Shown: positions 34,594 to 55,543, counted from the stretch's first letter. The stretch: 64,000 bases of DNA from an uncultured Clostridium sp. (GCA_948470565.1 CAOKPF010000004.1:220-64219); one strand, 5' to 3'. Notes: generated by a model from the letters alone, not told the origin. Translations and numbers: made by a program.

Positions 34594-34637
34594 ATTATAT
34601 AATACTTTTTCAAATTATATAATACTTTTTCAAATTT
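34591..34637. repeat. 20-bp tandem duplication (2.3 copies)
   Basis: CAAATTATATAATACTTTTT at 34591 and 34611, then a partial CAAATTT at 34631. Sits at the 5' edge of the decayed gene. Confidence 0.85.
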
Positions 34638-37643: not shown

Positions 37644-37645
37644 AA

Positions 37646-39209: not shown

Positions 39210-39259
39210 ATATTCAGTAAATTGACACTGTCGTATAGTGTTTGGAGGTTAGATATAAT

Positions 39260-40300
39260 ATGGTTAGAATGAGTCAATTAAAAAAGAGGCTATTTACAGG
39301 AATAGCTATTGGAGCAGGTGTAGGAGTTGTAATTTCAGGAATTATTGGTTGGTGGTCTTTATCTACCATAAAAAGTTATCAAAATGGTACTAATAAAAAG
39401 TATCAACAATTGTATACAAAGCTTGTAACAGTTCTTACTACTGATGTTATACAAGGTCAAATAATAGATGATACTATGGTAAAGGAAGTAAGAGTACATA
39501 ATACTACTGTACCAGCAGGTGCACTTAGCAAAGATATAGTAGTAGGAAGCGTAGCAAGTTATAATATACCTGCAAATGTCCCTGTTACAAGTACTATGGT
39601 ATCAGAAGATATAGTTGACAGTGATTTAAGAGAACAAGAACTTAATATGGTTGTGTTACCAAGTAACTTAAATGTAGGTGATTACATAGATGTAAGGCTT
39701 ATGTATCCAAATGGTACTGACTATGTTGTACTTACAGGTAAAGAAGTTAAAGAATTAACTGAACAAACTATGTGGATAGATATATCAGAAGATGAAAGAC
39801 TATTATTAAATGGTTCAATAGTAGATTCATATTTAAAAGCGGGCTCAAAATTATATGCAACAAGATATATAGATGCTGCAACTCAACTTGATGCCTCAAA
39901 TCAAGTTGAAGGTGCTGATTCTAATGCAGATTTGGCAAGGCAGTATTTAAAAGATCAATACGAATCTGAACTTAGAGGAATAGGTTCTGCTAGTAGTGAT
40001 TCAGCAGTTGAAAAAATACTAGATTTTATAGTATCATATAAAGCATATTCGGCTGTTGTTTCAAAGACAAAAGTAAATTATCAACCAAATGCTCAAATTA
40101 TTCAAATGATGAATACAAATCCTAATATACTTCAAGAGGCAAAGGATAAACTTAGTGCAGAAGCAAGAACTAATATGGAAAATGCTATAAATAGTTATCA
40201 ATTATCAAATTCAGAAGAGTACAATAACGTAATAACTGGTGCTCAAGAGTCAATCACAAATCAAAAGAATCAAAGAACATCATTATTAAATGTAGAATAA
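39260..40300 (+). CDS. CpaB/RcpC-like pilus assembly protein (N-terminal TM, SAF domain)
   Basis: Start at ATG 39260 (GGAGG 11 nt upstream). TM LFTGIAIGAGVGVVISGIIGWW. SAF-like VTVLTTDVIQGQIIDDTMVKEVRVHNTTVPAGALSKDIVVGSVASYNIPANVPVTSTMV, then LNVGDYIDVRLMYPNGTDYVVL as in the RcpC/CpaB C-domain. Confidence 0.65.
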   Translation: MVRMSQLKKRLFTGIAIGAGVGVVISGIIGWWSLSTIKSYQNGTNKKYQQLYTKLVTVLTTDVIQGQIIDDTMVKEVRVHNTTVPAGALSKDIVVGSVASYNIPANVPVTSTMVSEDIVDSDLREQELNMVVLPSNLNVGDYIDVRLMYPNGTDYVVLTGKEVKELTEQTMWIDISEDERLLLNGSIVDSYLKAGSKLYATRYIDAATQLDASNQVEGADSNADLARQYLKDQYESELRGIGSASSDSAVEKILDFIVSYKAYSAVVSKTKVNYQPNAQIIQMMNTNPNILQEAKDKLSAEARTNMENAINSYQLSNSEEYNNVITGAQESITNQKNQRTSLLNVE

Positions 40301-40316: not shown

Positions 40317-41030
40317 ATGCAAGTTATAGGTTTAATTGGTTATGCAGATAAGTATGATTTTGCATTAAATTTAGCAAAGACAATAAATATAATGGGAAAG
40401 TCAGTTTTAGTTGTAGATGCAACTTTAGAGAAAAAAATTAAATATATAGTGCCTGCTCTTAATAATTTAGGAGAGGCCTACGTAACACAGTATAATAATA
40501 TAGACTTTGCAGTAGGTTTTGATAGTATGCATGATATAGAAAATTATATGTGTGAAGAGGGAATAAATATTGGATTATATGATTTCATAATAATTGATAT
40601 TGATAGTGCAAAAACATATGAATTTTTTAGAAATAGAGGCTTTGATAAAATGTATTTCTTTACTAATACTAGCGTGCTTTCAGCTAATAAAAACAAAGAA
40701 ATAGTAAAAGCAATAAAAGTATATCATCAAGGTGAAGAAAAATTGCAAATGACTAAAGTTTTGTATAAAGAATTTATTTCAAGAGCAGCTGAGGATTATA
40801 TTGATAAACAAATTGAAGAATATGCAATTGAGTGGAAAGAACCAGAATATGAAATAAATGTAGATGATCAAGATAAAATGGCAGATATAGATTCACAGTT
40901 TAGCGGAAATATAAATATAAGGGAACATACAAAAAATTTTATAAATACAATTGCAGATCTTAGTGCAGATATTCTTGAAGATGTTACATCAAAAGAAGTT
41001 AGAAATGAAATAAAAAGGAGGAAGGATTAA
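40317..41030 (+). CDS. ParA/MinD-fold protein lacking a Walker A lysine (TadZ/CpaE-like, degenerate) - copy 1
   Basis: Beta1-loop-helix pattern VIGLIGYADKYDFALNLAKTINIMGKSVLVVDA, where GYADKYDF replaces G-K-G-G-x-G-K-T. Walker-B-like YDFIIIDID. Confidence 0.5.
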   Translation: MQVIGLIGYADKYDFALNLAKTINIMGKSVLVVDATLEKKIKYIVPALNNLGEAYVTQYNNIDFAVGFDSMHDIENYMCEEGINIGLYDFIIIDIDSAKTYEFFRNRGFDKMYFFTNTSVLSANKNKEIVKAIKVYHQGEEKLQMTKVLYKEFISRAAEDYIDKQIEEYAIEWKEPEYEINVDDQDKMADIDSQFSGNINIREHTKNFINTIADLSADILEDVTSKEVRNEIKRRKD

Positions 41031-41845
41031 TGGCAAGAGTAGCGTTTTGGAGTCTTGATACTAGTATGACTGGAAATACACATACTGCAATAGCAGTTTC
41101 AACACTTGTTAGTATTACTCATAAAACATCTAGTTTATTATTACATGGTAATTTTGATTCAAGAAAAATTGAATCAGCCTTTACTCCATATGCAGAATTA
41201 AAAGATAAAGGCACATTTGAGAATTCAAATATTGGTGTTAGTGCACTTATAAGGCTGGTTACAAGTAATAAGCTTACTGCTGATGCAGTTCAAAACTATG
41301 CAAAACCAGTATTAAAAGAAAGATTAGATGTACTTTATGGAATGAATCAAAAAAATGAAGTTGATTATGCAGATTTAGTAAATAATTTACCATATATAAC
41401 CAGAAAAGCAGATCAAATATATGATTTGGTGTTTATTGATATACCAAAAGGTACAAAAGAAAAATATGTAACTGATACATTAGCTGATTCAGAAATTGTT
41501 GTATGTGTTGTTAATCAAGATTCAGTAAAACTAGATGATTTCTTTGAAAGAATTAATAATTTAGAAGCATTAAAGGATAAATCTAAAATAATAGTAATAG
41601 GGGATTATGAACAAAAATCAAAATATACTGTACAAAATATAAAAATTAAGTATAAAACAAAAGATGAAATTTTTGTACTGCCTCATAACTATTTATTCTC
41701 AGATGCTTGCAATGATGGTAATGTTGTAAATTTCTTTTATAACAATATGAATGCAGACCCAAGAGATTATAATGGTTATTTTATATCGGAAACATCTAAA
41801 ATTGTAGAAAAAATTATAGATGAAGCTAAGATAAAAGATTTATAA
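41030..41845 (+). CDS. ParA/MinD-fold protein lacking a Walker A lysine (TadZ/CpaE-like, degenerate) - copy 2
   Basis: The ATG overlaps the previous stop (TAATG). RVAFWSLDTSMTGNTHTAIAVSTLVSITHKTSSLLLHG with SMTGNTHT in the P-loop position. Walker-B-like YDLVFIDIPKG, then EIVVCVVNQD. Confidence 0.5.
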   Translation: MARVAFWSLDTSMTGNTHTAIAVSTLVSITHKTSSLLLHGNFDSRKIESAFTPYAELKDKGTFENSNIGVSALIRLVTSNKLTADAVQNYAKPVLKERLDVLYGMNQKNEVDYADLVNNLPYITRKADQIYDLVFIDIPKGTKEKYVTDTLADSEIVVCVVNQDSVKLDDFFERINNLEALKDKSKIIVIGDYEQKSKYTVQNIKIKYKTKDEIFVLPHNYLFSDACNDGNVVNFFYNNMNADPRDYNGYFISETSKIVEKIIDEAKIKDL

Positions 41846-41871: not shown

Positions 41872-43767
41872 ATGACAGTTGCATTTGTATTTAATATAAT
41901 ACTTATAATTCTTTTAGTAGGATTTGTCGCAGCGTTTTTTTGGTATAAAATAAAAAATGGTAATCCAAAAAATGATAATGATGCCATTATTGCAAGAGAA
42001 AGAGAAAAGTATAGCATTAAAACTATGCAAGAATTTATAAAAAAGCAATTTGATGAAATTACCAGAATGAATTTATATGATTTAGCTTTATCAGAAGAGG
42101 AATTTGAAAGAAGAAAAAATATAAAATATGAGTTGAAAAAAGCGTTAAAAGGTGCAGGTTATGCAGATCAGAGTGATAAAAAGTATGTAAAAACTTTAAT
42201 GTTTGACTTACTTAGAAATAACTACAATGTTAATAACCATAATATAAATTATGCTATTAATTTTAGTGATTTTGAAGATTTGACATCTCAAGATAAGTTT
42301 GAAATACTTATGCATATTTATAAAAAAGAGTTTAAACAAGAGGCTCTAACTCAAATTATCACAAAATATGGCTTGGATTTTCCTAAATATGAATTTGATT
42401 CACAAGTCCCATCATATGTAATCACTGCAAAAGAGATAGATGAGATATTTGCAAAAGAAGTTAGTGAAGATTTGCTTACATTTGATGATAAGCTTGAGAT
42501 AGTTGTACAAAGGATATACCAAGGATACAAGGGATATAGCGTTGTTGACGATATTCGTGATATGAATATAGATGGTGTATCTGGTGGTGTATCTGGTATT
42601 CCACCATCATTCTTAGATCAAATATCTGGAATGGACGAATATATGGATCAAATGAATGGTAGAAAAATACCAATGTCATATGATTCAGTTTGGATATTCT
42701 TTAGAGGTAAAGCTACATATTTATCATTTTTATCATTTGGTAGTGAAGCAGAACTTAAAAGAGTTTGCCAAAATATATATAAGTATAATAATCCAGGACA
42801 GTTATCAGAATCTGTTGGTTACAAGGTAAATGAAATGAAAGATGGTTCCAGAATAGTTGTTTTGAGACCAAACTTTTCAGAATCTTGGGCATTCTTTGTA
42901 AGAAAGTTTGCTCCACCAACACTTATATCTGCTGAACAATTATTAGTACATAAGAATAAAGAAAATGTAATAGAATTACTAAAATATTTAATAAGAGGCG
43001 CAAGAGTTACATCAATTACTGGTGAGCAGGGTTGTGGTAAAACAACACTTTTGATGGCTATTATGAAATATTTATACCCAACTATTACAATCAGGGTACA
43101 GGAAATGGCGTTTGAGTTACACTTAAGAAAAATTTATCCTTACCATAACATATTATCATTAAGAGAAACTGATACAATATCTGGACAACAAGGTTTGGAC
43201 GTACAGAAAAAGACAGATGGTGGTGTTAACATACTAGGAGAGGTTGCAACAGATCCGGTTGCCGCTTGGATGATTCAGATGGCACAGGTTGCCTCAAAAT
43301 TTACTTTGTTTACACACCATGCTAAAACTTTTCCAAACTTAATAACTGCACTTAGAAACTCATTATTAAAGATTGGTATGTTTAATAATGAAGATGTAGC
43401 AGAAGTTCAGGTTGTACAAGTTATAAACTTTGATATACACTTGGTTAGAGGTGTTGATGGTACTAGATATATAGAAAGAATTACAGAATGTATACCTTTA
43501 GAACCAACATTTCATTATAACAATGATTATAGGAAAGAAAAATCATTAGAGGGAAAACTTGATAAATTTATGGATAATGCGGTAGAATACTTTGAACATG
43601 TTACAAAAACTAGTAACTATACATATAAAAATATAGTTGAGTTTAGAGATGGGGAGTATGTATTTGCCAATCCATTATCAGAAACTAATATAAAAGCTAT
43701 GAGATCTAATATGTCTCCAGAAGATGTAAAAGAATTTGATGAATTCTTAGACACTGCTTGGAGGTGA
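41872..43767 (+). CDS. CpaF/TadA-like secretion ATPase (T2SSE/VirB11 superfamily) with N-terminal TM helix and long N-extension
   Basis: Walker A ITGEQGCGKTTLLMAI, Walker-B region GGVNILGEVATDPVA, His-box-like FTLFTHHAKT. Residues 1-27 (MTVAFVFNIILIILLVGFVAAFFWYKI) are strongly hydrophobic. About 370 aa precede the ATPase core. Confidence 0.7.
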   Translation: MTVAFVFNIILIILLVGFVAAFFWYKIKNGNPKNDNDAIIAREREKYSIKTMQEFIKKQFDEITRMNLYDLALSEEEFERRKNIKYELKKALKGAGYADQSDKKYVKTLMFDLLRNNYNVNNHNINYAINFSDFEDLTSQDKFEILMHIYKKEFKQEALTQIITKYGLDFPKYEFDSQVPSYVITAKEIDEIFAKEVSEDLLTFDDKLEIVVQRIYQGYKGYSVVDDIRDMNIDGVSGGVSGIPPSFLDQISGMDEYMDQMNGRKIPMSYDSVWIFFRGKATYLSFLSFGSEAELKRVCQNIYKYNNPGQLSESVGYKVNEMKDGSRIVVLRPNFSESWAFFVRKFAPPTLISAEQLLVHKNKENVIELLKYLIRGARVTSITGEQGCGKTTLLMAIMKYLYPTITIRVQEMAFELHLRKIYPYHNILSLRETDTISGQQGLDVQKKTDGGVNILGEVATDPVAAWMIQMAQVASKFTLFTHHAKTFPNLITALRNSLLKIGMFNNEDVAEVQVVQVINFDIHLVRGVDGTRYIERITECIPLEPTFHYNNDYRKEKSLEGKLDKFMDNAVEYFEHVTKTSNYTYKNIVEFRDGEYVFANPLSETNIKAMRSNMSPEDVKEFDEFLDTAWR

Positions 43768-43771: not shown

Positions 43772-45829
43772 ATGATAATGTATGTAGCAATAGGATTGAT
43801 AGTTTTTGCAATTTTAGGAATTATTGCAGCGTTTGTTGCATATAGCCTTTTTAAGAAGAAATATAAAAATAATAGTGCCTTGCACCAAAAAGACACATTA
43901 CTTGTAAGGAATAAAAGTACAACAAAAGATACTTTTGATAGACTATTTCAAATGATATATCTTGTTTTTGTTAAAATGCCTGTAATAAAATATTATACTA
44001 AAAAAACAAGATTAAAATTAGAAATGACAAATGATTACTCTGAATATGAAATAAGACGTAGAGCTGGAAAATACATGTTAATAGCAATAGTATTTATATT
44101 TGTATCATTGTTTGTTGTCCTAAATCTAGTTTCTGATTTGTACATGTCACTTATTGTTATAGTAGGTGTACTTGTAATATCAGAGAAAATGATTGATATT
44201 GGTATTACATCAGTATCTGATAAGATATTAAGACAAATGCCAGAAGCATTTACAAGTATAAGACATGCTTTTCATGAGCATGGTATGATAGAGGAGTCTT
44301 TTGATACAGCTATTGATGATTTAGGCGAAAAAGAAATTGTTCCTCAATTAAAAAGAATAAAAGAAGCAATGATGGCTGAAAATCCTGAAATTGAACTTGA
44401 AAGATATTATGATACAGCACCAAATAGATTTTTGAAATTATTTGCAGGTGTTTCATACTTAACACTTGAACTAGGGGATAGAAAAGTAGATGGTTCATCT
44501 GTTTATCTTAGAAACTTAAATAATATACTTAGTGATATATATCTTGAAATATTAAAAAGAGATAAGATAAATTATATGTTTAGAAGTTTAACTGTAATAG
44601 CAGTTGTACCTATATTTTTCATAACACCACTTCAAGCTTGGGCTGAGAATAACTTTCCAGCATTAACAAACTTTTATAGTAGTAGTATAGGTTTTATAGT
44701 TCAGTCTTTGATAATAATATCTATATTTGTATCGTATATAATGCTTAGAATTATTAGAGAAGATCCTGAACAAATAAAATTTGATAGGGTTTCAAATGTA
44801 AAGTGGCAAGATAAATTATACAAAAAAGCATATGTAAAAATGCTAATAGATGCATTTAAGCCACAAGAACATACAAGAAAGTATCGACGAGAAACAATGA
44901 TTATAAAAAACACAAATGCTTACCTTACAATTGAATGGTTGTATGTAAATAAATTTACAGCTGGTATAATTGCATTTTTACTATCGTTATTTCTTATGTT
45001 TAACTTGCAAAGAATTGATTTAGCTTCAGTTGCAAATGCTATTGGTGATGAGTTTTTAGCAATGGGACAATTAAGTGATTCTCAAAAGGAAGCTGCGGAA
45101 GCCTTAAATCAAGCGGATATGACTTACGTAAATAAGTATAAAAATTCAAAGATTACAAGAGAAGAACTAGAACTTGAGCTTATGAATGATGCTACAGGTG
45201 AGATTGAACAAGATGATGTTGATAGAATATATGGAAAAATTTCAACTGTTCAAAATGCATATTTAAAATATTGGCAATTAATAATTTGTTTATTTGTTGC
45301 AGTACTTGGATATATGATACCAACAATAGTACTTATTATAAGAAATAAGATGAGAGAACTTGAAAAAGAAAATGAAATTATGCAATTTCAGTCAATAATT
45401 TTAATGCTTATGTATATTGATAGAATTGATGTTCAAACTATATTAGAGTGGTTATGTAGATTTTCTTATGCTTTTAAAGAACCAATAGCAACTGCTCTAA
45501 ACAATTATGAGGCAGGAGCAGAAGCAGCACTTGCACAACTTAAAGAAGATGTTCCATATAAGGATTTTGTAAGAATAGTTGAACAATTAGAATCAGCAGT
45601 TGAAAGAATACCAATAAAGGATGCTTTTGATGAATTAGAAACTGAGAGAAGTTTTTATCATGATAGAAGAAAAGAAGGTAATGAAAGATTAATTCAAAAG
45701 AAAGTAACTTATGGTAAAGTTTTAGGCTTTGCGCCACTGGTTATACTTATAGGTGGATATTTAGTTGCACCACTTATGATTGTAAGTATAATGCAAATGA
45801 TGACATACTTTAGTAGTATGACATTCTAA
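43772..45829 (+). CDS. Fused double T2SSF-type platform protein (TadB-TadC-like)
   Basis: 685 aa. Two repeats of the platform architecture (TM, a ~110-aa helical cytoplasmic domain, then paired TMs). First domain ILRQMPEAFTSIRHAF...LRNLNNILSDIYLEILKRDKINYMFRSLTVIAVVPIFF. Second domain MQFQSIILMLMYIDRIDVQTILEWL...ERSFYHDRRKEGNERLIQKKVTYGKVLGFAPLVILIGGYLVAPL. Confidence 0.6.
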   Translation: MIMYVAIGLIVFAILGIIAAFVAYSLFKKKYKNNSALHQKDTLLVRNKSTTKDTFDRLFQMIYLVFVKMPVIKYYTKKTRLKLEMTNDYSEYEIRRRAGKYMLIAIVFIFVSLFVVLNLVSDLYMSLIVIVGVLVISEKMIDIGITSVSDKILRQMPEAFTSIRHAFHEHGMIEESFDTAIDDLGEKEIVPQLKRIKEAMMAENPEIELERYYDTAPNRFLKLFAGVSYLTLELGDRKVDGSSVYLRNLNNILSDIYLEILKRDKINYMFRSLTVIAVVPIFFITPLQAWAENNFPALTNFYSSSIGFIVQSLIIISIFVSYIMLRIIREDPEQIKFDRVSNVKWQDKLYKKAYVKMLIDAFKPQEHTRKYRRETMIIKNTNAYLTIEWLYVNKFTAGIIAFLLSLFLMFNLQRIDLASVANAIGDEFLAMGQLSDSQKEAAEALNQADMTYVNKYKNSKITREELELELMNDATGEIEQDDVDRIYGKISTVQNAYLKYWQLIICLFVAVLGYMIPTIVLIIRNKMRELEKENEIMQFQSIILMLMYIDRIDVQTILEWLCRFSYAFKEPIATALNNYEAGAEAALAQLKEDVPYKDFVRIVEQLESAVERIPIKDAFDELETERSFYHDRRKEGNERLIQKKVTYGKVLGFAPLVILIGGYLVAPLMIVSIMQMMTYFSSMTF

Positions 45830-45878: not shown

Positions 45879-46292
45879 ATGGATAATGCGCAAAAGGCGA
45901 TAATGATTGGTGTAGGATTATTTATAACAATCATAGTAATAGCAGCAGTAATGTTAATTACAGGAATGGGGCAAGATTTGTTAAATAGTGGTACAAATCA
46001 ACTTGGAGGAGTTACATCAAGTTTGGAGTATCAAGTAGTACAGCCATATGATGGAACAATAATGTCAAGAGAACAAGTAATAGCAGCATTTAAGTCACTT
46101 ATAACAAATGAGAGTGTTGATACTGGTTATCAATTAAAAAATGGTTCAGGTTATGGACCTGAAGTTTCATGTACATCTATGCCTAATATCAATACTTTTA
46201 AAAATAGTGTTACAGCATCTTCAAAATTTAAAGGAGTTGTAACAGAGACTACAGGTGGAAAAACATATAAGGTTATATTTCAACAACAATAA
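45879..46292 (+). CDS. Pilin-like protein, candidate major subunit 1
   Basis: Start at ATG 45879 (SD AAAGGAGG). MDNAQKAIMIGVGLFITIIVIAAVMLITG N-terminal hydrophobic helix, then a ~100-aa beta-rich domain with a single Cys. Confidence 0.6.
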   Translation: MDNAQKAIMIGVGLFITIIVIAAVMLITGMGQDLLNSGTNQLGGVTSSLEYQVVQPYDGTIMSREQVIAAFKSLITNESVDTGYQLKNGSGYGPEVSCTSMPNINTFKNSVTASSKFKGVVTETTGGKTYKVIFQQQ

Positions 46293-46325
46293 TTTAAATA
46301 TAATGTGTAAAGGAGGTTAAAATAT

Positions 46326-46724
46326 ATGGATAATGCGCAAAAAGCGATAATGATTGGTGTAGGATTATTTATAACAATCATAGTAATAGCAGCAGTAATG
46401 TTAATAACAGGAATGGGGCAAGATTTGTTAAATAGTGGTACACAACAACTTGGTGGAATTGGAACAAGTTTAGAGTATCAAGTAGTACAACCATATGATG
46501 GTACAACGATGTCAAGGGATCAAGTAGTAGCAGCTTTAAAATCACTTATAACTAATGAAAGTGTAGAAGTAGGATATGGTCCTGTGGCATCTCCAACAAT
46601 GTGTACATCAATGCCTAACATTAATACATTTAAAAGTAGTTATACTGCATCTAAAAAATTTGTAGGTAATGTAACAGAAACTACAGGTGGAAAAACATAT
46701 AAAGTTATATTTGTACCACAATAA
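46326..46724 (+). CDS. Pilin-like protein, candidate major subunit 2 (tandem paralogue)
   Basis: The SD and the first ~115 nt are nearly identical to the gene at 45879 (2 mismatches by eye). The C-terminal half is diverged and includes an indel (QLKNGSGYGPEVS versus GPVASPTM). Confidence 0.6.
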   Translation: MDNAQKAIMIGVGLFITIIVIAAVMLITGMGQDLLNSGTQQLGGIGTSLEYQVVQPYDGTTMSRDQVVAALKSLITNESVEVGYGPVASPTMCTSMPNINTFKSSYTASKKFVGNVTETTGGKTYKVIFVPQ

Positions 46725-46743
46725 TAATTAATTATTTATATAC

Positions 46744-46772
46744 AAAAGGTATATACAGATATATACCTTTTT
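46744..46772 (+). terminator. Intra-operon hairpin terminator/attenuator after the tandem pilin genes
   Basis: AAAAGGTATAT-acag-ATATACCTTTT followed by TTG. Confidence 0.65.
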
Positions 46773-46819
46773 GTATAATTGTATATAACAAGTTATATTT
46801 TATATACTATGTGTGTTTT

Positions 46820-46861
46820 AAAAAGAATAAAGTAGAATAAATTAGTGTAATTATTCTTTTT
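46820..46861 (+). other. Second hairpin in the same intergenic gap
   Basis: AAAAAGAATAA-(20 nt)-TTATTCTTTTT, ending 10 nt before the SD of the next gene. Confidence 0.45.
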
Positions 46862-46884
46862 AAAGTATATATGGAGGGGATAAT

Positions 46885-47352
46885 ATGGATGAAGATATTA
46901 CGGTACGAGCTATAACTATAGGTGTTAGCGTATTTATAGCAGTAATTACAATATCACTTGTTTTAACATATTATAACACTGCAAGACAAGCTGCACAGAG
47001 CGCAGGTACAGGAATTGAAACGAATGGATATAGTGATAATATAAATACATTACTTGCTAAAAATAATAGAACTAATGCACTTACAGGTACAGATGCCAAA
47101 AATTTAATAAGTTATTTTTATGGAGAACCTACTGTTGAAATTACAGTTAAAAATTTAGCATATATAGGTGAACTTGGAGATTTTGAATATGCAAATACAA
47201 GTGGTACTCACTCTTCATATGTTAATATAAATAATGATAGATATAAATATAATAATGCTATGAAACTTATTATTTCTAATCATGCATATACTTTAAATTA
47301 TGTTGATAATGGAAATAGGCTTGTTATAGAATTAGTAGGAAAAACTATATAG
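46885..47352 (+). CDS. Pilin-like protein (minor-subunit candidate, type B)
   Basis: MDEDITVRAITIGVSVFIAVITISLVL N-terminus. Shares ISYF, NNDR.Y and NH.Y.L.Y blocks with the gene at 48609. Confidence 0.5.
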   Translation: MDEDITVRAITIGVSVFIAVITISLVLTYYNTARQAAQSAGTGIETNGYSDNINTLLAKNNRTNALTGTDAKNLISYFYGEPTVEITVKNLAYIGELGDFEYANTSGTHSSYVNINNDRYKYNNAMKLIISNHAYTLNYVDNGNRLVIELVGKTI

Positions 47353-47370
47353 TAAAGTTAGGGGGAGAAT

Positions 47371-48129
47371 ATGGAGGATAATTTACAAAGGATATTTTCA
47401 ATTATAATTTCAATTATTATTTTCTTTTTACTTCCAATGTATATGGCGTATGAGAAAACAGATGATATATCATATGCATTAGCCTTAAAAATAACAAGTG
47501 GTTTTATGGATAATGTTAGAAGTAAAGGTTATATATCTTTAGCTATGTATAGTGATTTTGTAAGTAGACTTAATACTGCTACAAATAACAAGTATGAGAT
47601 AAAAATGGAACATGTAGCCAAAAAGTATAATCCAGCCTTTTATATTTATAGTGATGACAATAGTAAAATAATTGCAACTTTAGATTATCAGTCATATAAA
47701 GATAAGTTTACATCAAGTGGAGCAGATCCAAAGAAAGGCTCAATTTTATACAATGGAACAAATTACAATAATGTGGTATTGTCGTACAAGCTAGATGAAG
47801 AAAGGTATAATGAAAATACTATAATAGATGTACTTCATAGAGAACCTGGTAGTACAGATAATCCTTTAACAATATATAGTGATTTTGATAATTATGCTCG
47901 TATTACTTTTGAACAGGTTCCATATATAACAAATATGTATGGAACTGAGGATAATAGTTTGTATACAATGTCCACAGGAGATGAATTTAATATAATTGTA
48001 AAAAATGAAAATGTTACAATTGCTTCAACTTTATTTAATACACTTACACTGGGTACTACTAGTAGTGAAATTGTAAAGATATATATAAATTATGGTGTAA
48101 CAATTGCTAATGAATCATATGAGCAGTAA
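47371..48129 (+). CDS. Membrane-anchored accessory protein X1
   Basis: N-terminal TM IFSIIISIIIFFLLPMYMAY, then EKTDDISYALALKITSGFMDNVRSKGYIS. Paralogue of the gene at 49102. Confidence 0.5.
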   Translation: MEDNLQRIFSIIISIIIFFLLPMYMAYEKTDDISYALALKITSGFMDNVRSKGYISLAMYSDFVSRLNTATNNKYEIKMEHVAKKYNPAFYIYSDDNSKIIATLDYQSYKDKFTSSGADPKKGSILYNGTNYNNVVLSYKLDEERYNENTIIDVLHREPGSTDNPLTIYSDFDNYARITFEQVPYITNMYGTEDNSLYTMSTGDEFNIIVKNENVTIASTLFNTLTLGTTSSEIVKIYINYGVTIANESYEQ

Positions 48130-48144
48130 CAAGGAGATGGATAT

Positions 48145-48540
48145 ATGGATTTCTTAAGTAATAAAGCGATAATGATAGGTGTTAGTTTGTTTGTAACTAT
48201 GTCTATTGTTTCAGGTGTAATGCTAGTTGTAACACAAATACAAGGTATATATAAAGGAGTATATAAAACTAATATATCAATTAGTAGAATGTTTAGTGAA
48301 TATGATGCATTTGATGATGCGCAAAAAACAGGTGTGGATTTGTTGAATGCAGCAAAAAGGTATAAAGACAATAGAAAAGTAAATGTGTATTTAGGTGGTA
48401 CATTAATAAATAATGATGCAGGGATTTCAAATCTTACTACACAACTTAGTAGTAATACAGGAACTATTAGGTATGAAACTAAATATAGGACAACTGTTAC
48501 ATATAACACTAATGATACAGTTAGTATTACATTTAGATAA
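48145..48540 (+). CDS. Pilin-like protein (minor-subunit candidate, type A)
   Basis: The MDFLSNKAIMIGVSLFVTMSIVSGVMLVV N-terminus closely matches the tandem pilins. 131 aa. Confidence 0.5.
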   Translation: MDFLSNKAIMIGVSLFVTMSIVSGVMLVVTQIQGIYKGVYKTNISISRMFSEYDAFDDAQKTGVDLLNAAKRYKDNRKVNVYLGGTLINNDAGISNLTTQLSSNTGTIRYETKYRTTVTYNTNDTVSITFR

Positions 48541-48608
48541 TTTGGATTATAAAAAGATAGAAAATAAAAATTAAGAATAATAGAGAGTAATAAAAGGAGG
48601 GACACATA

Positions 48609-49058
48609 ATGGATGATTCAGCAACAGAACTAATATATATAGGAGCGTATTTATTAATATTTATGTCAGCAGTGGCACTTACAATATATTTATTTAGAGC
48701 GGTATATGACTATTCTGAAAGTGCATATAAATATCAAACAGTAGCAATAAATGATTCTGATATTGTAATGCCAGCAGAGGATGCATATTATAGGTATGTG
48801 TCTGCTTCAGAATTAGTATCATATTTTTCTAATTATATAAAAAAAGATAACTATGCGCCAACTGACAATTTTTCAGATTGTACAGTAACGATAAAAAATA
48901 GTGCAGGTGCTGTAATTTTTGCAACATCTGTAAATAATGATAGAACATATAGTGAATTTATAAATACAATTCAGACAAATCACAGATATATTTTAAAATA
49001 TATTGGAAAAAATACGTCAGGACCAATAATTGAAATATATGATAGTGGTAGTATTTAA
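48609..49058 (+). CDS. Pilin-like protein (minor-subunit candidate, type B)
   Basis: MDDSATELIYIGAYLLIFMSAVALTIYLF N-terminus. C-domain paralogous to the gene at 46885. Confidence 0.5.
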   Translation: MDDSATELIYIGAYLLIFMSAVALTIYLFRAVYDYSESAYKYQTVAINDSDIVMPAEDAYYRYVSASELVSYFSNYIKKDNYAPTDNFSDCTVTIKNSAGAVIFATSVNNDRTYSEFINTIQTNHRYILKYIGKNTSGPIIEIYDSGSI

Positions 49059-49101: not shown

Positions 49102-49641
49102 ATGAAAAATAGTTTAAGTATTGTTGTAACAATAATTATCTTAGTATTGTTTGTAGTAATATTTCCTCTATACAACTATTTTGAAAGAGAAGACGATATG
49201 TCATATAACATAGTGTTAAAAGCTACTACTAATATGGTTGAAGAGGTAATAAATAATGGATATATCGATCAAGAAAGTGTAGATAAGTTCTATGCACAAC
49301 TAGCCCAAACTGGAAATGGATATGATGTAGTATTTGAGGCACATAAACGTTTACTTATAAAAAATCCAGATGGTGGTGATAGCTTTGTAGAAAAGTTTAT
49401 AATAGATTATAACGATGATATTTTCACCAAAACAGATTCTACGGCAGTAAATAGTACAGTGTTAAAATCAGGTTCATACTTGTTGGAAAAAGGAGATAGA
49501 GTATATATAAAAGTAAAAAATAGTAATACTACAATGGCAGGTGCAATATTTAATATTATTATTCCAACATCAAGTAAAGATAGAATTGTAGTAAATTATG
49601 GTGGTATAGTAAAAAATGCTGCTTGGAAAGCAGTAACCTAA
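49102..49641 (+). CDS. Membrane-anchored accessory protein X2
   Basis: TM IVVTIIILVLFVVIFPLYNYF, then EREDDMSYNIVLKATTNMVEEVINNGYID. Paralogue of the gene at 47371. Confidence 0.5.
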   Translation: MKNSLSIVVTIIILVLFVVIFPLYNYFEREDDMSYNIVLKATTNMVEEVINNGYIDQESVDKFYAQLAQTGNGYDVVFEAHKRLLIKNPDGGDSFVEKFIIDYNDDIFTKTDSTAVNSTVLKSGSYLLEKGDRVYIKVKNSNTTMAGAIFNIIIPTSSKDRIVVNYGGIVKNAAWKAVT

Positions 49642-49678: not shown

Positions 49679-50881
49679 TTGCAAATAACAGATTATGCAC
49701 TTATATTTGCAGCTATTATGTTTCCTGTAATTATAATTGTCTATATAAATGTTTCATATACAATTAAGGCAGGTGAGCAAGAGCTATATTATGAAAAGAT
49801 AATAAACCAAGCTGTTGCAGATGCTGCATTAGAAATGAAAGAAGTTGAAAATAGTGATGGTAACATTGACTATGGATATTCTGGAAATACTGATAAAAAA
49901 ATAAGTGTAAACGCACAAATTGGTGTAGACACATTTTTAAATTCATTATATAATAATTTTGGAATAATTGGAAATGAATCAGCAGAACAATATCTCCAAT
50001 TATTTATACCAGCTATTGCTATAATAGACTATAATGGTATTCAAGTATCTTCTATTGAAAAGTATAATGAAACTATTAGTGGTGTTTCTACTGAAGTAAA
50101 GAAACATGCACTAAAGCCAAAAAGATATTATACATATTCATATAGTATACTTAGAGATGGTACTATATTAGATGGTATGCAAACATCAAATAGTATGGTA
50201 GATTCAATTCATACAATAGAATTTACTATGGATGATTATATCACTCATAGAGGAGTGTACAAAAATGGGACAGGTTGGATACCAATATACAAAGATCAAA
50301 GTAACACAAATTCTACAACTGTTCAATCTTTTTATATAAAAGATAGTGTGAATAATTCAGTCTTGTATAGAGGTACAGTAAGTCATGGGTATGATGTAAA
50401 GGATAAAGTAGAAACTTTACTAACTGAAAAGCGAGCACAAGTTATAATTGATACAATTACAGAAGAGATGTCTTATGCTGTAAGTGCAAATAATTCATAT
50501 GCAGCTGCTGAGGGAATATCATATAATTTTGTATTTCCAACTATAACAGTAGATGAGATGTATGAAACAATACAAGAAGTTGGAATGATGGCGTTTGTAC
50601 AAGGAATATCAGTTGGAAATAAATATTTAAACACTAAAGCTTATGGACTTTCAAAACTAAATTTAGTACATAAATATTATTTTACAGTTCCATCTGTAAG
50701 TTCAAAGTATAAGATGAATTTATACCATAAATCACTGTCATGTCCTGAATATAAACTTGCAACACATACTAATATAATACCACAATATGTAACAAGTAAA
50801 CAACAAGCAGCTTCAGCAAAATGTACATTAAATGGTAGTACATATATGGGATTTTATCCATGTCAGATATGTAGACCATAG
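49679..50881 (+). CDS. Membrane-anchored 400-aa protein with C-terminal four-Cys cluster
   Basis: TTG start with SD GGAGGGAG. N-terminal helix YALIFAAIMFPVIIIVYINV. The last 60 aa contain C-PEY...C-TLNG...C-QIC. Confidence 0.5.
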   Translation: MQITDYALIFAAIMFPVIIIVYINVSYTIKAGEQELYYEKIINQAVADAALEMKEVENSDGNIDYGYSGNTDKKISVNAQIGVDTFLNSLYNNFGIIGNESAEQYLQLFIPAIAIIDYNGIQVSSIEKYNETISGVSTEVKKHALKPKRYYTYSYSILRDGTILDGMQTSNSMVDSIHTIEFTMDDYITHRGVYKNGTGWIPIYKDQSNTNSTTVQSFYIKDSVNNSVLYRGTVSHGYDVKDKVETLLTEKRAQVIIDTITEEMSYAVSANNSYAAAEGISYNFVFPTITVDEMYETIQEVGMMAFVQGISVGNKYLNTKAYGLSKLNLVHKYYFTVPSVSSKYKMNLYHKSLSCPEYKLATHTNIIPQYVTSKQQAASAKCTLNGSTYMGFYPCQICRP

Positions 50882-50891
50882 GAGGGATAAT

Positions 50892-52472
50892 ATGGAAGAT
50901 AACAATAAGAATAAAAATGGATTTGTACCATCATATATAAAGCAAGAAGAGGTAGCTGAAAATACTACGAATAAAAATGATAATTCAAAAGATAAAAAGA
51001 AATCATCTAATAATTCTAGAAAAAGGCTTGGAATTATAACTATAATTTTTATAGTTGTAATTTTAGTATTAGTTATATTTTTTGCAATTAAGATATATTC
51101 ATACTTTTCAAATATGAAGTATAATGATTACAAGATGAAAATGGATGCATATGGCTATAACATATTATATAATAATGAAAAATCAACTTCATCAGAAAAT
51201 TTGACTAAATCTGAGGCTTTAAAAGTAGTTATTGGAACTGTTATGGGAAAAACAGATATATCAGATTTGTATGGAACTTTAGGTGATACAGATAATGTAG
51301 ATGATTTAGGAGAGTTAAAACAAATAACAGGTTCATATGAAGCATATGATGCAGAAGGTAATTTAGTAACTGTTGAAATTCCAGAAGATGCTGATTATAC
51401 TATATATGAAGGTACATATGATGATGAAACAGGAGATATTATTTTAGATGATGAAAACGAGGAAAATAATGATAATAAACCTAATGATAAATTAGATAAA
51501 TATACAGAAACTTATAAAAACCAAATATGGGTAGATTATGCAGTTGATAAAGGAATAATAGCGACCGATGATGTTAATAAAGATAATGCAGGAAAAAAAG
51601 CTACTTTTATGGATGTACTAAAATATTTAGAGGGTACAAAAAAAACTATATTAAATATGCAGGCAGGTGCTAAGGAAGATGATGTAAAAGATATGGAAAT
51701 ATATACAAATGAAGAACAACTTATAATATCAGATCTTTTAAAATCAAAGGCATTAACTGATACAAATCAAAAATTAAATGCATATAAAGATGCTACTAAA
51801 GGAAAAGTTAATATGTTACTTGTAAACTTTATGGAAAATAACAACTTAATGACATATGGAGGAAAGATAAATATAAACAAAGAAAAGGAACCATCAAATA
51901 AATCAGATTATCCATATACATTAGCAAACATTGATAAATCAGTATATGAAGTACAAAATTATATTGCAGATAAAAAGAATTATAAAACAGCAAAGCAATT
52001 ATATAGTCAAATGAGAGCAGAATATTCACAAATAGAAGATGTAATAACTACATACTTTAATACTATACTAAATATAGATTATAACTCACCATTAACTGAA
52101 GATAGTTTAGATGATTTGATAAATTTAATGGATATGACAAGCTCAACTGAATACAACGAGATATATGATTATTTTGAATATGTAAAGACAAACGAGATAA
52201 AACTTACTGGTACTTCAAGTATAATTTTTCCAGCAATATATTATGATGGAAATAATTATAGAGTAAGAGTAAAAGTTGAATATACAGTGGAAAATGCTAA
52301 AGATTATAACAATTTGATATTGGGAGATTATAAAAGTAATTCAAGCATTGGATATGAAAAATCTAAAAAAGAACTATTATTAGATGTACCATTAAATAAA
52401 TTTGAAGATACAACAGTAATGAGTGTAGTTTTAAAACCAATATCAGAAATGATAGCAGGACAAATTAAATAA
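50892..52472 (+). CDS. Bitopic envelope protein, paralogue A1
   Basis: Start at ATG 50892 (SD GGAGGGA). Basic N-tail, one TM (LGIITIIFIVVILVLVIFFAI). Ectodomain with W-x-x-YA-x-x-x-GII (SLH-like) and a conserved C-terminal block YFEYVKTNEIKLTGTSSIIFPAIYYDGNNYRVRV. Confidence 0.55.
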   Translation: MEDNNKNKNGFVPSYIKQEEVAENTTNKNDNSKDKKKSSNNSRKRLGIITIIFIVVILVLVIFFAIKIYSYFSNMKYNDYKMKMDAYGYNILYNNEKSTSSENLTKSEALKVVIGTVMGKTDISDLYGTLGDTDNVDDLGELKQITGSYEAYDAEGNLVTVEIPEDADYTIYEGTYDDETGDIILDDENEENNDNKPNDKLDKYTETYKNQIWVDYAVDKGIIATDDVNKDNAGKKATFMDVLKYLEGTKKTILNMQAGAKEDDVKDMEIYTNEEQLIISDLLKSKALTDTNQKLNAYKDATKGKVNMLLVNFMENNNLMTYGGKININKEKEPSNKSDYPYTLANIDKSVYEVQNYIADKKNYKTAKQLYSQMRAEYSQIEDVITTYFNTILNIDYNSPLTEDSLDDLINLMDMTSSTEYNEIYDYFEYVKTNEIKLTGTSSIIFPAIYYDGNNYRVRVKVEYTVENAKDYNNLILGDYKSNSSIGYEKSKKELLLDVPLNKFEDTTVMSVVLKPISEMIAGQIK

Positions 52473-52486
52473 GGAGAGAAACTTAT

Positions 52487-54385
52487 ATGTCTAAAGATGA
52501 AAATGTTGAAAAAAACATAATTAAAGAAGAGGGTGTAGAAAAAAAGACTAAGAAGGTTGGTAGACCAAAAACTACTAAGACTGAAACAAAGAAAAGTACA
52601 ACAAAGACTAAAACTTCAACAAGGAAAACTACAACTAAAGTCAAAACTAAGACTGAAGATACTGTTAAAAAACAAGTTGAGGAAAATACTAACGCTACAG
52701 TAAAGCCTTTATTTGAAATTGGATTAGATACTAAAGAAAAAGAGGCTGAGGATAAAAAGTCTGTAAGTAATCTTGATGATAAATTAAAAGCAAAAATTGA
52801 GGAAGAAATGGCAGGGGGAGCTATTATAGCTCCCAAAGAAAATAAACCTTTGGAAGAGGTAGAAGAAAAAAAAGAAAATAATGTTGTAGATGGAAAAGGT
52901 AAAATAAATAATCAAATAAGCTTACAACCAGAAAATAATGTCAAAATTGATTCAAATATAGAGCAAATAGTATCAAAACATGAAATAAAACAACAAAATA
53001 TAAAAGTACCATCAGAAGAGTACATAAAAAATGATGCTCAAATAAAAAAGATAAATGAAAATATAGCTAAAAAAGAAAATAAGGAAAATAAGAAAAAAAG
53101 TAGAGAAAAAAAACCTAGAAGTGATTATAGATTGAAACAAAGGATTGTATTAATAGCTATAGAAATTGCTATTGTTTTATTAGTTATATTTGTTGTTGTA
53201 TGGGCTTTTAGTTTATTTACTAATAGTGAGTATAAGGAATATACTTCTAAAATGGATAACTTAGGGTTAAGTGAGCTATATAATAATTCTTCTGCTAAGT
53301 ATACACAGTATGTAACTAAAGGTGAGGCTATTAAATTAATAATTGCAACATTACTTAATACTAATGATATATCTAGTTTAGTGGCTCCTTTAAAAGAGGA
53401 AAGTTACTTAAATGAAACTTGGATAAATTATGCTAAAGATATTGGGATTATTACTGATGAAGAGATAAATGAGAATAATTGTAATGATAAAATTACATAT
53501 ATTGATATATTAAGTTTGCTTTCAAAAGCTGAGGTGGTATTAAATGATGTTTCACTAAATACTACTGAAAAAATTAATTTTTCAAATGCAGATAAGCTAT
53601 CTTTTGAACAAAAAGCAGTTATAAGACAAGCTATTAGTAATGGTATTATTGAAAATAATGAGAATGAATTTAATATAGAAAAAAAGGTTACAAAAGGACT
53701 TTTAAACAAAACTTTAGTACAATATGTAAAGAAAAGCAAAGTAATCGCTATAAGTGATGAGAATATAACTTTTGATAATGCTAATTATCCTTATACATTA
53801 GAAAGTTATGGAAACAATGATGAAATGTATATTAACCCATATAATATAGAAGAATTTAAAAGTGTTTCTGGTGGGTATAAAAGCTCAATTGAAACATATA
53901 AAACAATGAAACAATATTATAAAGAGTTTTTAGAAACTGTACAAAATTATTATAATGTAATTTTAAATATAAATTCTAATACTATTACAGAAGAAACATT
54001 TTTAAATGACATTAGTAAATATGTTGTAGTAACAAAAGATACTTCAAAAAATGTTCATGAATATGTGGAGTATGTAAAAAATAACAATATAAATATTAAT
54101 GGAAATGCAAAGGTTGTGTTACCAGTTATATATTATGATGGACTAGATTATAGGGTAAGAACAGAAATTAAACTTACAGTTGAATCTGCTAATAATTTAA
54201 AAAATGTATTATATATGGATTTATCCTCAGGTGGGGAATATGAGTATAGTATAGGTAACGTTTCTGATATTATAGATGTGCCTGTTAAAAAATTAAAACG
54301 TGAAAAACCAGTAGTGGTGCAAACAACAGTACATGATATATTTGCAGGTAGCGTAAAAGAAAGTAGTGTAATGAATAATATGTAG
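52487..54385 (+). CDS. Bitopic envelope protein, paralogue A2, with long K/T-rich N-terminal tail
   Basis: A ~225-aa charged N-region including KKTKKVGRPKTTKTETKKSTTKTKTSTRKTTTKVKTKT. TM IVLIAIEIAIVLLVIFVVVWAF. C-terminal block YVEYVKNNNININGNAKVVLPVIYYDGLDYRVRT. Confidence 0.55.
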   Translation: MSKDENVEKNIIKEEGVEKKTKKVGRPKTTKTETKKSTTKTKTSTRKTTTKVKTKTEDTVKKQVEENTNATVKPLFEIGLDTKEKEAEDKKSVSNLDDKLKAKIEEEMAGGAIIAPKENKPLEEVEEKKENNVVDGKGKINNQISLQPENNVKIDSNIEQIVSKHEIKQQNIKVPSEEYIKNDAQIKKINENIAKKENKENKKKSREKKPRSDYRLKQRIVLIAIEIAIVLLVIFVVVWAFSLFTNSEYKEYTSKMDNLGLSELYNNSSAKYTQYVTKGEAIKLIIATLLNTNDISSLVAPLKEESYLNETWINYAKDIGIITDEEINENNCNDKITYIDILSLLSKAEVVLNDVSLNTTEKINFSNADKLSFEQKAVIRQAISNGIIENNENEFNIEKKVTKGLLNKTLVQYVKKSKVIAISDENITFDNANYPYTLESYGNNDEMYINPYNIEEFKSVSGGYKSSIETYKTMKQYYKEFLETVQNYYNVILNINSNTITEETFLNDISKYVVVTKDTSKNVHEYVEYVKNNNININGNAKVVLPVIYYDGLDYRVRTEIKLTVESANNLKNVLYMDLSSGGEYEYSIGNVSDIIDVPVKKLKREKPVVVQTTVHDIFAGSVKESSVMNNM

Positions 54386-54396
54386 AGGAGGTAGGA

Positions 54397-55521
54397 ATGA
54401 AAAGTATAAAAAATTATATAAAAAAATTAATACTAGGTTGTGCTTTTACACTTCCTATCTGTTTTGGATATAGTACAATTAATGCAACCTCAGATATAAT
54501 TGCAAATTGCGTAGATGACGAATGTAGTGAGCTATATTTTGTTGTAAAAAGAACACCATCACAATTTGATACAAAGTATTATAACGGAGAATCAGTTGTT
54601 GTTACAAATTTAAAAGATGAAACTACATTATCACCGCTTATGGGTTCATTTGAAACAGCAAAAGTTTTAATATCTGAAGCACAATATGAAGAAAAGAAGG
54701 CAAAGGCAAAATATACTAATGAAAATGATATAAAGTGGGTACAAAGATCTGATAATCAAATATTTTATAACTCATTAGATTTACTTAGAAATTATCTAAA
54801 ACCATATATGTATAAAATTGCAAATAAGCCTGATATATCATCATATTTTACATATTCTGATGATATTGAAAAGAAGTTTTATATTACAGGAAATAACGAA
54901 TATGTATCATATAATGTAATAGATTCTAAATTACTATCACTACTTAAGAATAGTTATAGTGAAGATAATAGTTTTCTTGAAGATGCAGGGGATTATTATA
55001 GGATATATTTATCTAATGTATATAGGGGTCAGGATGTTATAATTGGTAGAGATTATCAGTTTATGTATGATATAGACGATAGCTCAAAAGTACCACAAGA
55101 TATTGAAACTAATTGTTACTTTTATCAACCAATACTTATACCAAAATCAGTTATAAATAGTACGAAAAGAAAACAAGTGTTAGTTATGTATAAGTATGAA
55201 AATGAAGATGGAAAATACGAGTTAAAATCTAGTTATCTTATTGATGAGATGCTAAGTTTTACTGATGGATTAAAGGAATATACTACAACATATAATGCTA
55301 CACAAAATGAATATTATCATATACTAGGAGAAAATAATAATACTTATGAATATGCTGGTATAAGACTTGCTAATGGAGATAATCTAGAATTTTTGCAAAA
55401 TAATATTGATAAGAGTACAAATAAGTATTCAACTGGGTATACTGAGTATAAGTTTTATATAAATCATTTATCAGATGATGTACAAGTTATATGCTATTAT
55501 TTTGATTTGAAAACTGAATAA
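54397..55521 (+). CDS. Secreted protein, paralogue B1
   Basis: Signal-peptide-like N-terminus. NCVDDECSELYF near the mature N-terminus. Collinear with the first ~370 aa of the 1700-aa protein. Confidence 0.55.
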   Translation: MKSIKNYIKKLILGCAFTLPICFGYSTINATSDIIANCVDDECSELYFVVKRTPSQFDTKYYNGESVVVTNLKDETTLSPLMGSFETAKVLISEAQYEEKKAKAKYTNENDIKWVQRSDNQIFYNSLDLLRNYLKPYMYKIANKPDISSYFTYSDDIEKKFYITGNNEYVSYNVIDSKLLSLLKNSYSEDNSFLEDAGDYYRIYLSNVYRGQDVIIGRDYQFMYDIDDSSKVPQDIETNCYFYQPILIPKSVINSTKRKQVLVMYKYENEDGKYELKSSYLIDEMLSFTDGLKEYTTTYNATQNEYYHILGENNNTYEYAGIRLANGDNLEFLQNNIDKSTNKYSTGYTEYKFYINHLSDDVQVICYYFDLKTE

Positions 55522-55543
55522 TTATTTGAAAGGGGGATATTTT

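Follow-up and report, generated by a model that had tools for sequence, protein, structure and literature searches.

A divergent Tad-like locus of an uncultured Clostridium codes for pilin-like proteins that share a conserved, noncanonical N-terminal junction

We analyzed a stretch of 64,000 nucleotides (nt) of an uncultured Clostridium sp. (GCA_948470565.1, CAOKPF010000004.1:220-64219; G+C, ~26%), here called the window, in which five open reading frames (ORFs) on the plus strand, located between positions 45879 and 49058, code for small pilin-like proteins with a noncanonical N terminus. Our interpretation, to which we give a probability of about 0.5, is that these proteins are the structural subunits of a very divergent Tad-like (type IVc-related) filament and that their leader is cleaved by an A24-type prepilin peptidase not linked to the locus. 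They would represent one major pilin, present in two tandem copies, and three minor pilins. There is good support for regarding them as filament subunits of a Tad-like machine, and removal of the leader by an unlinked peptidase is slightly favored over assembly without cleavage. The locus itself was already known, as it is of the same type as the TANB77 "pilus gene cluster" with its pilin-like proteins 932 to 938 (Kim et al. 2024, Nat Commun 15:10726; PMC11680825). What we add is a definition of this N-terminal class, the recognition of which subunit is the major one, the extension to cultured Paenibacillaceae, the consistent absence of a linked peptidase, and the detection of a misannotation.

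The five proteins start with MDNAQKAIMIGVGLFITIIVIAAV (twice), MDEDITVRAITIGVSVFIAVITI, MDFLSNKAIMIGVSLFVTMSIV, and MDDSATELIYIGAYLLIFMSAV in our translation, exactly the N termini quoted by the sequence-only reading that had singled them out. All five genes have a strong Shine-Dalgarno sequence (AAAGGAGG, ATGGAGGGG, or AAGGAG) 6 to 9 nt upstream of the ATG, so their starts and leaders can be considered reliable; for the first one, the ATG at 45879 is preferred to the upstream GTG at 45849 that the ORF listing gives. The motif [ALVST]-I-x-I-G-[VAIS] occurs inside the first 60 residues of 5 of the 131 window ORFs of at least 50 amino acids (aa), which are these five only, and a regular-expression scan for the canonical G-x-x-x-x-E prepilin N terminus retrieved none of the 131. 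No Gly is found in any of the five leaders, and there is no Asp or Glu from the junction to approximately residue 33; as the helix has no acidic residues, Glu5 is also missing. The two residues at the junction are Lys-Ala, Lys-Ala, Arg-Ala, and Lys-Ala in four proteins and Glu-Leu in the fifth. This junction, Ala followed by Ile or Leu and with Val or Ala at +5, does not correspond to the bacterial class III signal (Gly at -1, Phe/Met/Leu at +1, and Glu at +5). We also read the FlaFind-type rule for archaeal class III signals (charge at -2; Gly, Ala, or Ser at -1; the H-domain directly after; PMC4371748) on the sequences themselves: four of the five proteins fitted it, and the Glu-Leu protein failed at -1. 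The earlier claim that these proteins lack a cleavage site is too strong, since Ala at -1 gives four of them, though not the fifth, a formally acceptable site. The proposed resemblance of the Lys/Arg-Ala junction to archaeal signals was borne out, as the documented PibD sites are KA|IS, RA|LS, and RA|VS (PMC4371748).

The same arrangement is found well beyond the window. Louvain clustering of the pilin-like proteins gave six orthogroups (OGs) per locus. The major pilin forms OG1 (130 to 190 aa; N terminus MDNAQKAIMIGVGLF), followed by OG2 (~155 aa; M[DE]x5[KR]A[IL]xIG), OG3 (~134 aa; MD[FY][ML]SNKA[LI]xI[AG]), and OG4 (~154 aa), whose acidic leader contains no basic residue (for example, MENANEAIYIG and MDDSATELIYIG). 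OG0, with two members per locus (180 to 1500 aa), starts with M[EK]DN[LI][SQ]...P, and OG5 (~400 aa) starts with MK[IL]TDFALIF.G. Ala followed by Ile or Leu is common to most members of OG1 to OG3 and OG5 and to some of OG4, and the groups share little else. As judged from these sequences, the putative signature of the class is M-[DE]-x(3-6)-[KR]-A|[IL]-x-I-G, in which a leader that is short and acidic or neutral is followed by a near-invariant Ala-Ile/Leu junction and a helix without charges. Its conservation in 182 ORFs over 75 syntenic loci shows that the pattern did not arise by chance; Lys or Arg stands immediately before the junction in 149 of these ORFs, and Ala is at the junction in 159. 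In an alignment of 140 diverse major pilins M1 is invariant, N3, K6, A7, I8, I10, G11, V12, G13, L14, F15, I16, T17, and I18 are at least 90% conserved, and the junction Ala is present in 136 sequences (and in ~116 of 120 Paenibacillaceae pilins). Every invariant codon position varies synonymously, so selection acts on the protein. The first ~30 to 40 residues of the major pilin homologs are near-invariant and the C-terminal part is divergent; the major subunit, duplicated in tandem, presents a variable head carried by a near-invariant helix.

The genomic context is that of a Tad-like machine. The five genes sit within one codirectional block that runs from a SAF-domain protein through two proteins of ~240 and 270 aa, an ATPase, and a polytopic protein to the pilins. 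The sequence matches of this machinery are weak but agree with one another. The first of these machinery proteins matches Pfam SAF (E value of 1.4e-4; 22.8 bits versus a cutoff of 21) and the CpaB model TIGR03177 (1.7e-5, far below its cutoff). Neither of the two TadZ-like proteins has a match in Pfam or NCBIfam, and their assignment comes only from the structural similarity reported for their orthologs by Kim et al. The ATPase retrieved CpaF as its sole match among the PDB sequences (E value of 1.1e-6; residues 274 to 546), in an alignment that includes the Walker A (GCGKTT), GEV, and His box motifs, and its matches to NCBIfam TadA (1e-5) and Pfam T2SSE (0.011) are both below cutoff; by its sequence it can be considered a CpaF/TadA family member, though only a distant one. 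Ahead of the core, the ATPase (41872 to 43767) has an N-terminal transmembrane (TM) helix and an extension of ~270 aa, which is kept in the Paenibacillus orthologs of 620 to 640 aa. TadA/CpaF ATPases are normally soluble, so a membrane anchor is unusual. The platform protein did not match any sequence in Pfam, NCBIfam, or PDB; it is 55 to 78% identical across 69 orthologs and contains two internally similar helical cytoplasmic segments, and the halves of its ortholog have been described as structurally TadC and TadB (PMC11680825). The structural assignment of the whole set of orthologs in that work was CpaB, TadZ, CpaE, TadA/CpaF, and TadC plus TadB, and their sizes (358, 231, 280, 640, and 693 aa, compared to 352, 237, 271, 631, and 685 aa here), gene order, TM counts, and the run of single-TM pilin-like proteins agree with our locus.

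The predicted structure of the subunit points in the same direction. The AlphaFold 2 model of the second copy of the major pilin (46326 to 46724), built from the alignment of 140 diverse sequences, reached a predicted local distance difference test (pLDDT) score of 90 and a predicted template modeling score of 0.66, and consists of a helix of 56 residues (2 to 57) followed by a small β-α-β-β-α-β-β head. This predicted layout would be the lollipop of type IV pilins, with a pilin-like topology. The pilin-like nature proposed from the sequence was thus upheld by the CpaB-, TadZ-, CpaF-, and TadB/C-like neighbors, the topology, and the predicted architecture; the term pilin rests on these features and not on homology.

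A word-index search with the major pilin gave 821 homologs, none of them with a Pfam domain or an informative name. Scanning one genome per GTDB species, we found 71 loci, all in metagenome-assembled genomes of uncultured gut "Clostridia bacterium," including Clostridium sp. CAG:465, CAG:921, and CAG:1219. With all ORFs clustered, 75 loci show a fixed order: a Peptidase_S11 gene (in 55 loci), SAF, the two TadZ-like genes, ATPase, platform, major pilin(s), minor pilins, a 400-aa protein, and a 456-aa protein. Some TANB77 genomes only (loci L002 and L003, positions 1 to 2233) carry two large serine recombinase genes (Resolvase, Recombinase, and Zn_ribbon_recom) just upstream. An exhaustive profile search extended the family to 1,315 clusters at 50% identity with E values up to 1e-3, and the best 150 profile matches all align at or near the first residue of the protein. 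The distant members start with M[DNES]N[AS]x[KR]A[LI]x[IV][GA].G, have a C-terminal Y-[IV]-N-P-S-G-x-F motif, belong to no Pfam family, and are found in the same locus type. The ATPase of one of these distant loci has >6,800 homologs, named CpaF/TadA in cultured Paenibacillus, Cohnella, Tumebacillus, and Metabacillus, and the loci of Paenibacillus polymyxa and Cohnella algarum have the same gene order as those of TANB77. The P. polymyxa locus is located on the megaplasmid pPPM1a, where PGAP labels seven of nine genes hypothetical. Paenibacillus and Cohnella orthologs of the major pilin are named "ABC transporter permease" by NCBI and UniRef (P0403, P0407, P0430, and others; L082, 13955 to 14434), which seems to be an annotation error that has been propagated, the protein having 160 aa and a single TM helix and being located in a Tad-like locus.

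Several observations were made around these distant loci. The megaplasmid of P. polymyxa M1 (L083; pPPM1a, NC_017543.1, 131769 to 180877) has 366 kb, and the locus has ParM and a replication-relaxation gene as neighbors; behind it come stalk-domain, DUF5704, GGDEF, VWA, and HD-GYP genes. The plasmid is classified as MPF_F by MOB-suite. This setting hints at a system that is controlled by cyclic di-GMP and horizontally mobile. The small second subunit of a P. polymyxa locus (L081, 14522 to 14905; 127 aa) starts with MKNAASMIEFSALFF, which if cut after Ala4 would give a Flp/TadE-like A|xxxxEF spacing, unlike its counterparts in Cohnella (MSHFVRTMIDMSF) and in L075 (MQQILKLAAFF). The latter locus, from a Firmicute with ~38% G+C (GCA_040391905.1), has a type VII secretion cluster upstream (positions 1 to 3400; EssC-like FtsK_SpoIIIE, WXG100, and YukD) and, downstream (12473 to 14774), genes for a GGDEF-like polytopic protein and for a ParA-like one that has a C-terminal TM helix and, judged by eye from its sequence, a possible N-terminal receiver-like region.

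In the mechanism we propose, each subunit would be made as a bitopic, N-in membrane protein with a polar leader of 6 to 8 residues, an uncharged helix of ~22 residues, and an external α/β head. An A24-type prepilin peptidase encoded elsewhere, with a PibD-like specificity for a charged residue at -2 and Ala at -1, would cut at the near-invariant Ala|Ile/Leu, so that the N-terminal helix of the mature subunit would carry no charge at all, like that of archaeal pilins. The membrane-anchored CpaF-like ATPase may then drive the fused TadB/C-like platform to extract the subunits from the membrane, which would stack via their N-terminal helices into a fiber, with the minor pilins and the larger N-terminally anchored proteins priming or capping it.

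Several results weigh against this interpretation, some of them concerning the pilin identity and others the cleavage. Regarding the former, no filament has ever been seen, and TANB77 is uncultured. Foldseek searches with the better model against PDB and BFVD gave nothing at an E value of ≤0.001 (best PDB match, 0.19) and no solved pilin, and a weaker first model likewise had no match at that threshold in PDB; single-sequence and profile searches of the PDB sequences with the pilin were empty. The Flp (PF04964) and TadE (PF07811) models were not matched at E values up to 1, nor were the N_methyl and archaellin models, in agreement with the lack of Gly at -1, of the Flp Glu-Tyr pair, and of Glu at +5 that had been noted from the sequence. 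Scans of the pilin-like ORFs and of the distant and Paenibacillus homologs against Pfam and NCBIfam returned no meaningful family, so that membership in a known nonpilin family, which would have spoken against pilins, did not appear either. Residues 1 to 32 of both major pilins gave a match below cutoff to the His1 virus capsid family PF25665 (E values of 0.04 to 0.06), which we discarded as most likely noise from the composition of a hydrophobic helix. The failure to detect a known pilin fold would suit a machine without an external pilus, in which the proteins form a short pseudopilus or piston or are membrane-anchored partners, and which exports or displays the large downstream proteins or transfers DNA. 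Large secreted or anchored proteins always follow the locus (one of 1700 aa here and DUF5704 proteins in Paenibacillus), the P. polymyxa copy has the plasmid neighborhood and MPF_F assignment given above, and the best NCBIfam match of the ATPase is the "conjugal transfer-associated" TadA family, at a score far below cutoff. Still, we consider such a machine unlikely, as the tandem duplication of the major subunit and the terminator-like hairpin behind it point to a highly expressed polymer subunit, a fast-evolving variable head on an invariant helix is typical of surface-exposed fibers, the GGDEF and HD-GYP genes at the P. polymyxa locus (with a GGDEF-like gene also after L075) suit adhesion or biofilm pili, and neither a relaxase nor a coupling protein is present at the chromosomal TANB77 loci.

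Regarding the cleavage, no A24 prepilin peptidase was found among all the polytopic ORFs of the window, as the sequence-only reading had stated, within 10 kb of the 75 TANB77 loci (ORFs clustered and screened for multi-TM proteins with GxGD-like motifs), or within 10 to 20 kb of the Paenibacillus and Cohnella loci; together, these searches cover the window and the 10- to 20-kb flanks of ~80 loci. The multi-TM ORFs with GxGD-like motifs near the TANB77 loci were only ABC/FtsX-type permeases, no conserved small polytopic family was present within 10 kb of these loci, and no PibD, FlaK, or EppA gene was found in the regions examined. The platform was considered as a fused peptidase and rejected, as the alignment of 69 orthologs shows no GxGD and a single conserved intramembrane Asp. 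A missing linked peptidase is not evidence of unprocessed subunits because such genes are often unlinked or shared: tadV is sometimes a "loner," one peptidase may serve more than one system, and MSH loci are all without a peptidase gene (PMC6668835). The leader itself raises further objections. Its entropy (0 to 0.94 bit in the 140 major pilins) equals that of the hydrophobic core. It is acidic or neutral and not basic, and 45 of the 49 unique leaders carry a net side-chain charge of ≤0. A small residue at the junction is often missing in OG4 and OG0, F, V, or M replaces the Ala at the putative -1 (position 7) of a few major pilins found in nature, and cleavage after Ala7 would leave a Lys at mature +2 in half of the Paenibacillaceae pilins.

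The same filament might therefore assemble without cleavage, as a peptidase-independent type IV filament in which the leader is the first turn of the N-terminal helix, a possibility that we hold only tentatively. The acid or acids located 4 to 5 residues before the Lys/Arg would then neutralize it or pair with a neighboring subunit, replacing the pair formed by Glu5 and the N-terminal amine. Several of the points just listed would be expected in that case, namely, the absence of an A24 gene at loci of two distant lineages, a leader as conserved as the core, and the substitutions at position 7. In addition, acids are excluded from the three positions before the Lys/Arg in the 49 unique leaders and occur at i-4/i-5 in 74 to 84% of them, of the 120 Paenibacillaceae pilins listed, 56 have their sole basic residue at position 6 and 60 at position 9, and none has both, around an invariant A7-L8, and OG4 has Glu, Gln, or Thr where the other groups have Lys or Arg. 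The AlphaFold 2 model also places residues 2 to 10 inside the helix, with a predicted pLDDT of 95. Taken further, TANB77 and Paenibacillaceae would form a widespread lineage without a prepilin peptidase, in which an acid/base pair or a single movable Lys replaces the Glu5/amine contact; we hold this generalization just as tentatively. Every characterized type IV filament needs a prepilin peptidase, and our literature search turned up neither type IV pili that do without one nor a characterized Paenibacillus system. Paenibacillus species normally carry ComC/PilD-type enzymes, and the near-invariant Ala-Ile/Leu junction across paralogs looks like a -1/+1 site; small-xxx-small packing (A7...G11) could account for the Ala, but it is an ad hoc explanation. 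We consider it very improbable that the leader is removed by a non-A24 protease or at another position, for example, directly after the Lys/Arg. The basic residue is the most position-specific polar feature of the leader, and with no A24 gene linked to any locus, the gene for Peptidase_S11 (a PBP5-type D-Ala-D-Ala carboxypeptidase), which in 55 of the 75 TANB77 loci directly precedes the SAF gene and is codirectional with it, could be seen as a candidate. It lies ~8 kb upstream of the pilin in L001 to L074 and is absent from the Paenibacillus loci and from the window, where Rho (37625 to 38950) is found upstream instead. We rejected it as the leader peptidase, since S11 enzymes are extracytoplasmic and thus of the wrong compartment as well as the wrong enzyme class; it may serve in cell wall remodeling for the fiber or be merely syntenic. 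Cutting after K6 in some proteins and K9 in others would also put the mature ends out of register, and no other conserved protease-like gene is present at the loci. Cleavage at the Ala|Ile/Leu junction by an unlinked A24-type peptidase is thus the reading that we retain.

The features of the locus are collected in Table 1. The interval from 45879 to 49058 holds a sixth gene (47371 to 48129) of a different N-terminal class, which together with a second protein of that class (49102 to 49641) is interleaved with the pilin-like genes; this second protein and the one at 49679 to 50881 are two further N-terminally anchored proteins beyond the interval. The hairpin after the tandem major pilin genes has a minimum free energy of -17.4 kcal/mol (z = -3.8 versus shuffles) and was overlooked by the consensus terminator scan because its stem has few G-C pairs; it fits a major subunit that is expressed at a high level compared to the minor subunits. 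The start of the SAF gene is probably the ATG at 39260, just downstream of a GGAGG. Among the accessory genes, those at 50832 to 52472, 52487 to 54385, and 55526 to 56908 are paralogous, coding for proteins with a Lys/Glu-rich charged cytoplasmic tail, one TM helix, and a conserved ectodomain, and the secreted proteins at 54397 to 55521 and 56927 to 62029 (the latter of 1700 aa and without a Pfam domain) share one similarity cluster.

Table 1. Features of the pilus-like locus in the window
Feature	Coordinates	Strand	Description
CpaB/RcpC-like SAF protein	39242..40300	+	One N-terminal TM helix; in 69 loci
TadZ/ParA-like protein 1	40317..41030	+	237 aa; degenerate P-loop; conserved in 69 loci
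TadZ/CpaE-like protein 2	41030..41845	+	271 aa; conserved in 69 loci
CpaF/TadA-like secretion ATPase	41872..43767	+	631 aa; N-terminal TM helix; in 73 loci
Polytopic platform, fused TadC/TadB-like	43772..45829	+	685 aa; ~8 TM helices
Major pilin, copy 1	45879..46292	+	137 aa; N terminus MDNAQKAIMIGVGLF; OG1; first gene downstream of the platform in 71 loci
Major pilin, copy 2	46326..46724	+	132 aa; 85% identity to copy 1
Terminator-like AT-rich hairpin, then UUUUGU	46742..46778	+	Directly downstream of the second major pilin gene
Minor pilin OG2	46885..47352	+	155 aa; N terminus MDEDITVRAITIGVS; 69 genes in 68 loci
OG0 anchored protein, second class, TadE/DUF4320-like	47371..48129	+	252 aa; MEDNLQRIFSIII...P
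Minor pilin OG3	48145..48540	+	131 aa; N terminus MDFLSNKAIMIGVS; 64 loci
Minor pilin OG4	48609..49058	+	149 aa; N terminus MDDSATELIYIGAY; acidic leader without basic residue; 63 loci
Second OG0 protein	49102..49641	+	179 aa; MKNSLSIVVTIII...P; faint DUF4320 match (E value of 0.54)
OG5 N-terminally anchored protein	49679..50881	+	400 aa; MQITDYALIFAAIMFP; Cys-rich C terminus; 60 loci; also in Paenibacillus loci
Downstream accessory genes	50832..62029	+	Linked to the pilus by synteny only

Elsewhere in the window, the ORF at 32840 to 33478 on the minus strand matches a C5 cytosine methylase at positions 115 to 323 of the 324 of the model only and is probably truncated. It is followed by ~1.6 kb (33478 to 35083) with no convincing ORF and by a pair of STAS (SpoIIAA-like) and HATPase_c_2 (SpoIIAB-like) genes (35083 to 35842) with no adjacent sigma factor gene, after which come a RimO/MiaB-like gene and Rho.

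By convention, type IV filaments are defined by prepilin peptidase processing at Gly (or Ala/Ser) and, in bacteria, by Glu5, and these features are built into PilFind, the Pfam N_methyl, Flp, and TadE models, and MacSyFinder. The family described here escapes tools of the PilFind, Pfam, and MacSyFinder type, and yet it is common, being present in most TANB77 species and many Paenibacillus species. The TANB77 pilin-like proteins have been linked to the response to checkpoint immunotherapy, so the mature N terminus and the identity of the major subunit matter for antigen, biomarker, and recombinant-protein work. As Paenibacillus is cultured and genetically tractable, peptidase dependence is directly testable there.

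Among the known systems, the TANB77 cluster of Kim et al. (PMC11680825) is the same locus type. These authors called the single-TM proteins after the machinery pilin-like without any homology, and they did not test the major pilin but only a large minor protein (938), which in recombinant form was shown to activate dendritic cells through TLR4. The words "peptidase" and "N-terminal" have no occurrences in their main text, which contains no discussion of an N-terminal motif or cleavage site. They described the cluster as exclusive to TANB77 at ≥50% similarity, whereas our searches place homologous loci in Paenibacillaceae and in further Firmicutes as well.

Gram-positive type IVa/Com pilins (ComGC and PilE of Streptococcus sanguinis) have in common with our proteins the monoderm host, the short leader, and the predicted lollipop with a small head, but they carry the G|F-T-L-x-E N_methyl motif, absent here, and depend on PilD/ComC. 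With the Tad/Flp system (type IVc; Caulobacter crescentus and Aggregatibacter actinomycetemcomitans), the locus shares the CpaF-like ATPase, which is single and of the bifunctional type, and several downstream pilin-like genes, and it would also share a CpaB-like SAF protein, TadZ-like proteins, and a TadB/TadC-type platform. However, Flp pilins are helices of ~50 to 60 aa without a head, processed at G|XXXXEY, and need TadV, while the subunits described here have 130 to 190 aa and a predicted α/β head, lack the Gly and the Glu-Tyr, and have no TadV gene linked to them. The ATPase is also membrane anchored, the platform is one putatively fused protein, and the Flp, TadE, T2SSF, and T2SSE models remain below threshold. 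The system would operate in the manner of a Tad pilus, to which its ATPase relates it distantly, but it fails the Tad-defining features of pilin and peptidase and most of the curated models. Finally, archaeal type IV pilins (UpsA and AapA/B of Sulfolobus and PilA1 to PilA6 of Haloferax) share with our proteins the short leader, the charged residue at -2, the Ala at -1, the aliphatic residue at +1, the lack of Glu at +5, and an H-domain that is near-invariant across several pilins (PMC4371748). They differ in that the host here is a bacterium, the leader is acidic or neutral instead of basic, the machinery is closest to the bacterial CpaF and not to archaeal ATPases, and the predicted head is not an Ig-like sandwich. 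Judged by sequence, the putative signal peptide of the five proteins appears to be closest to the archaeal class III signals.

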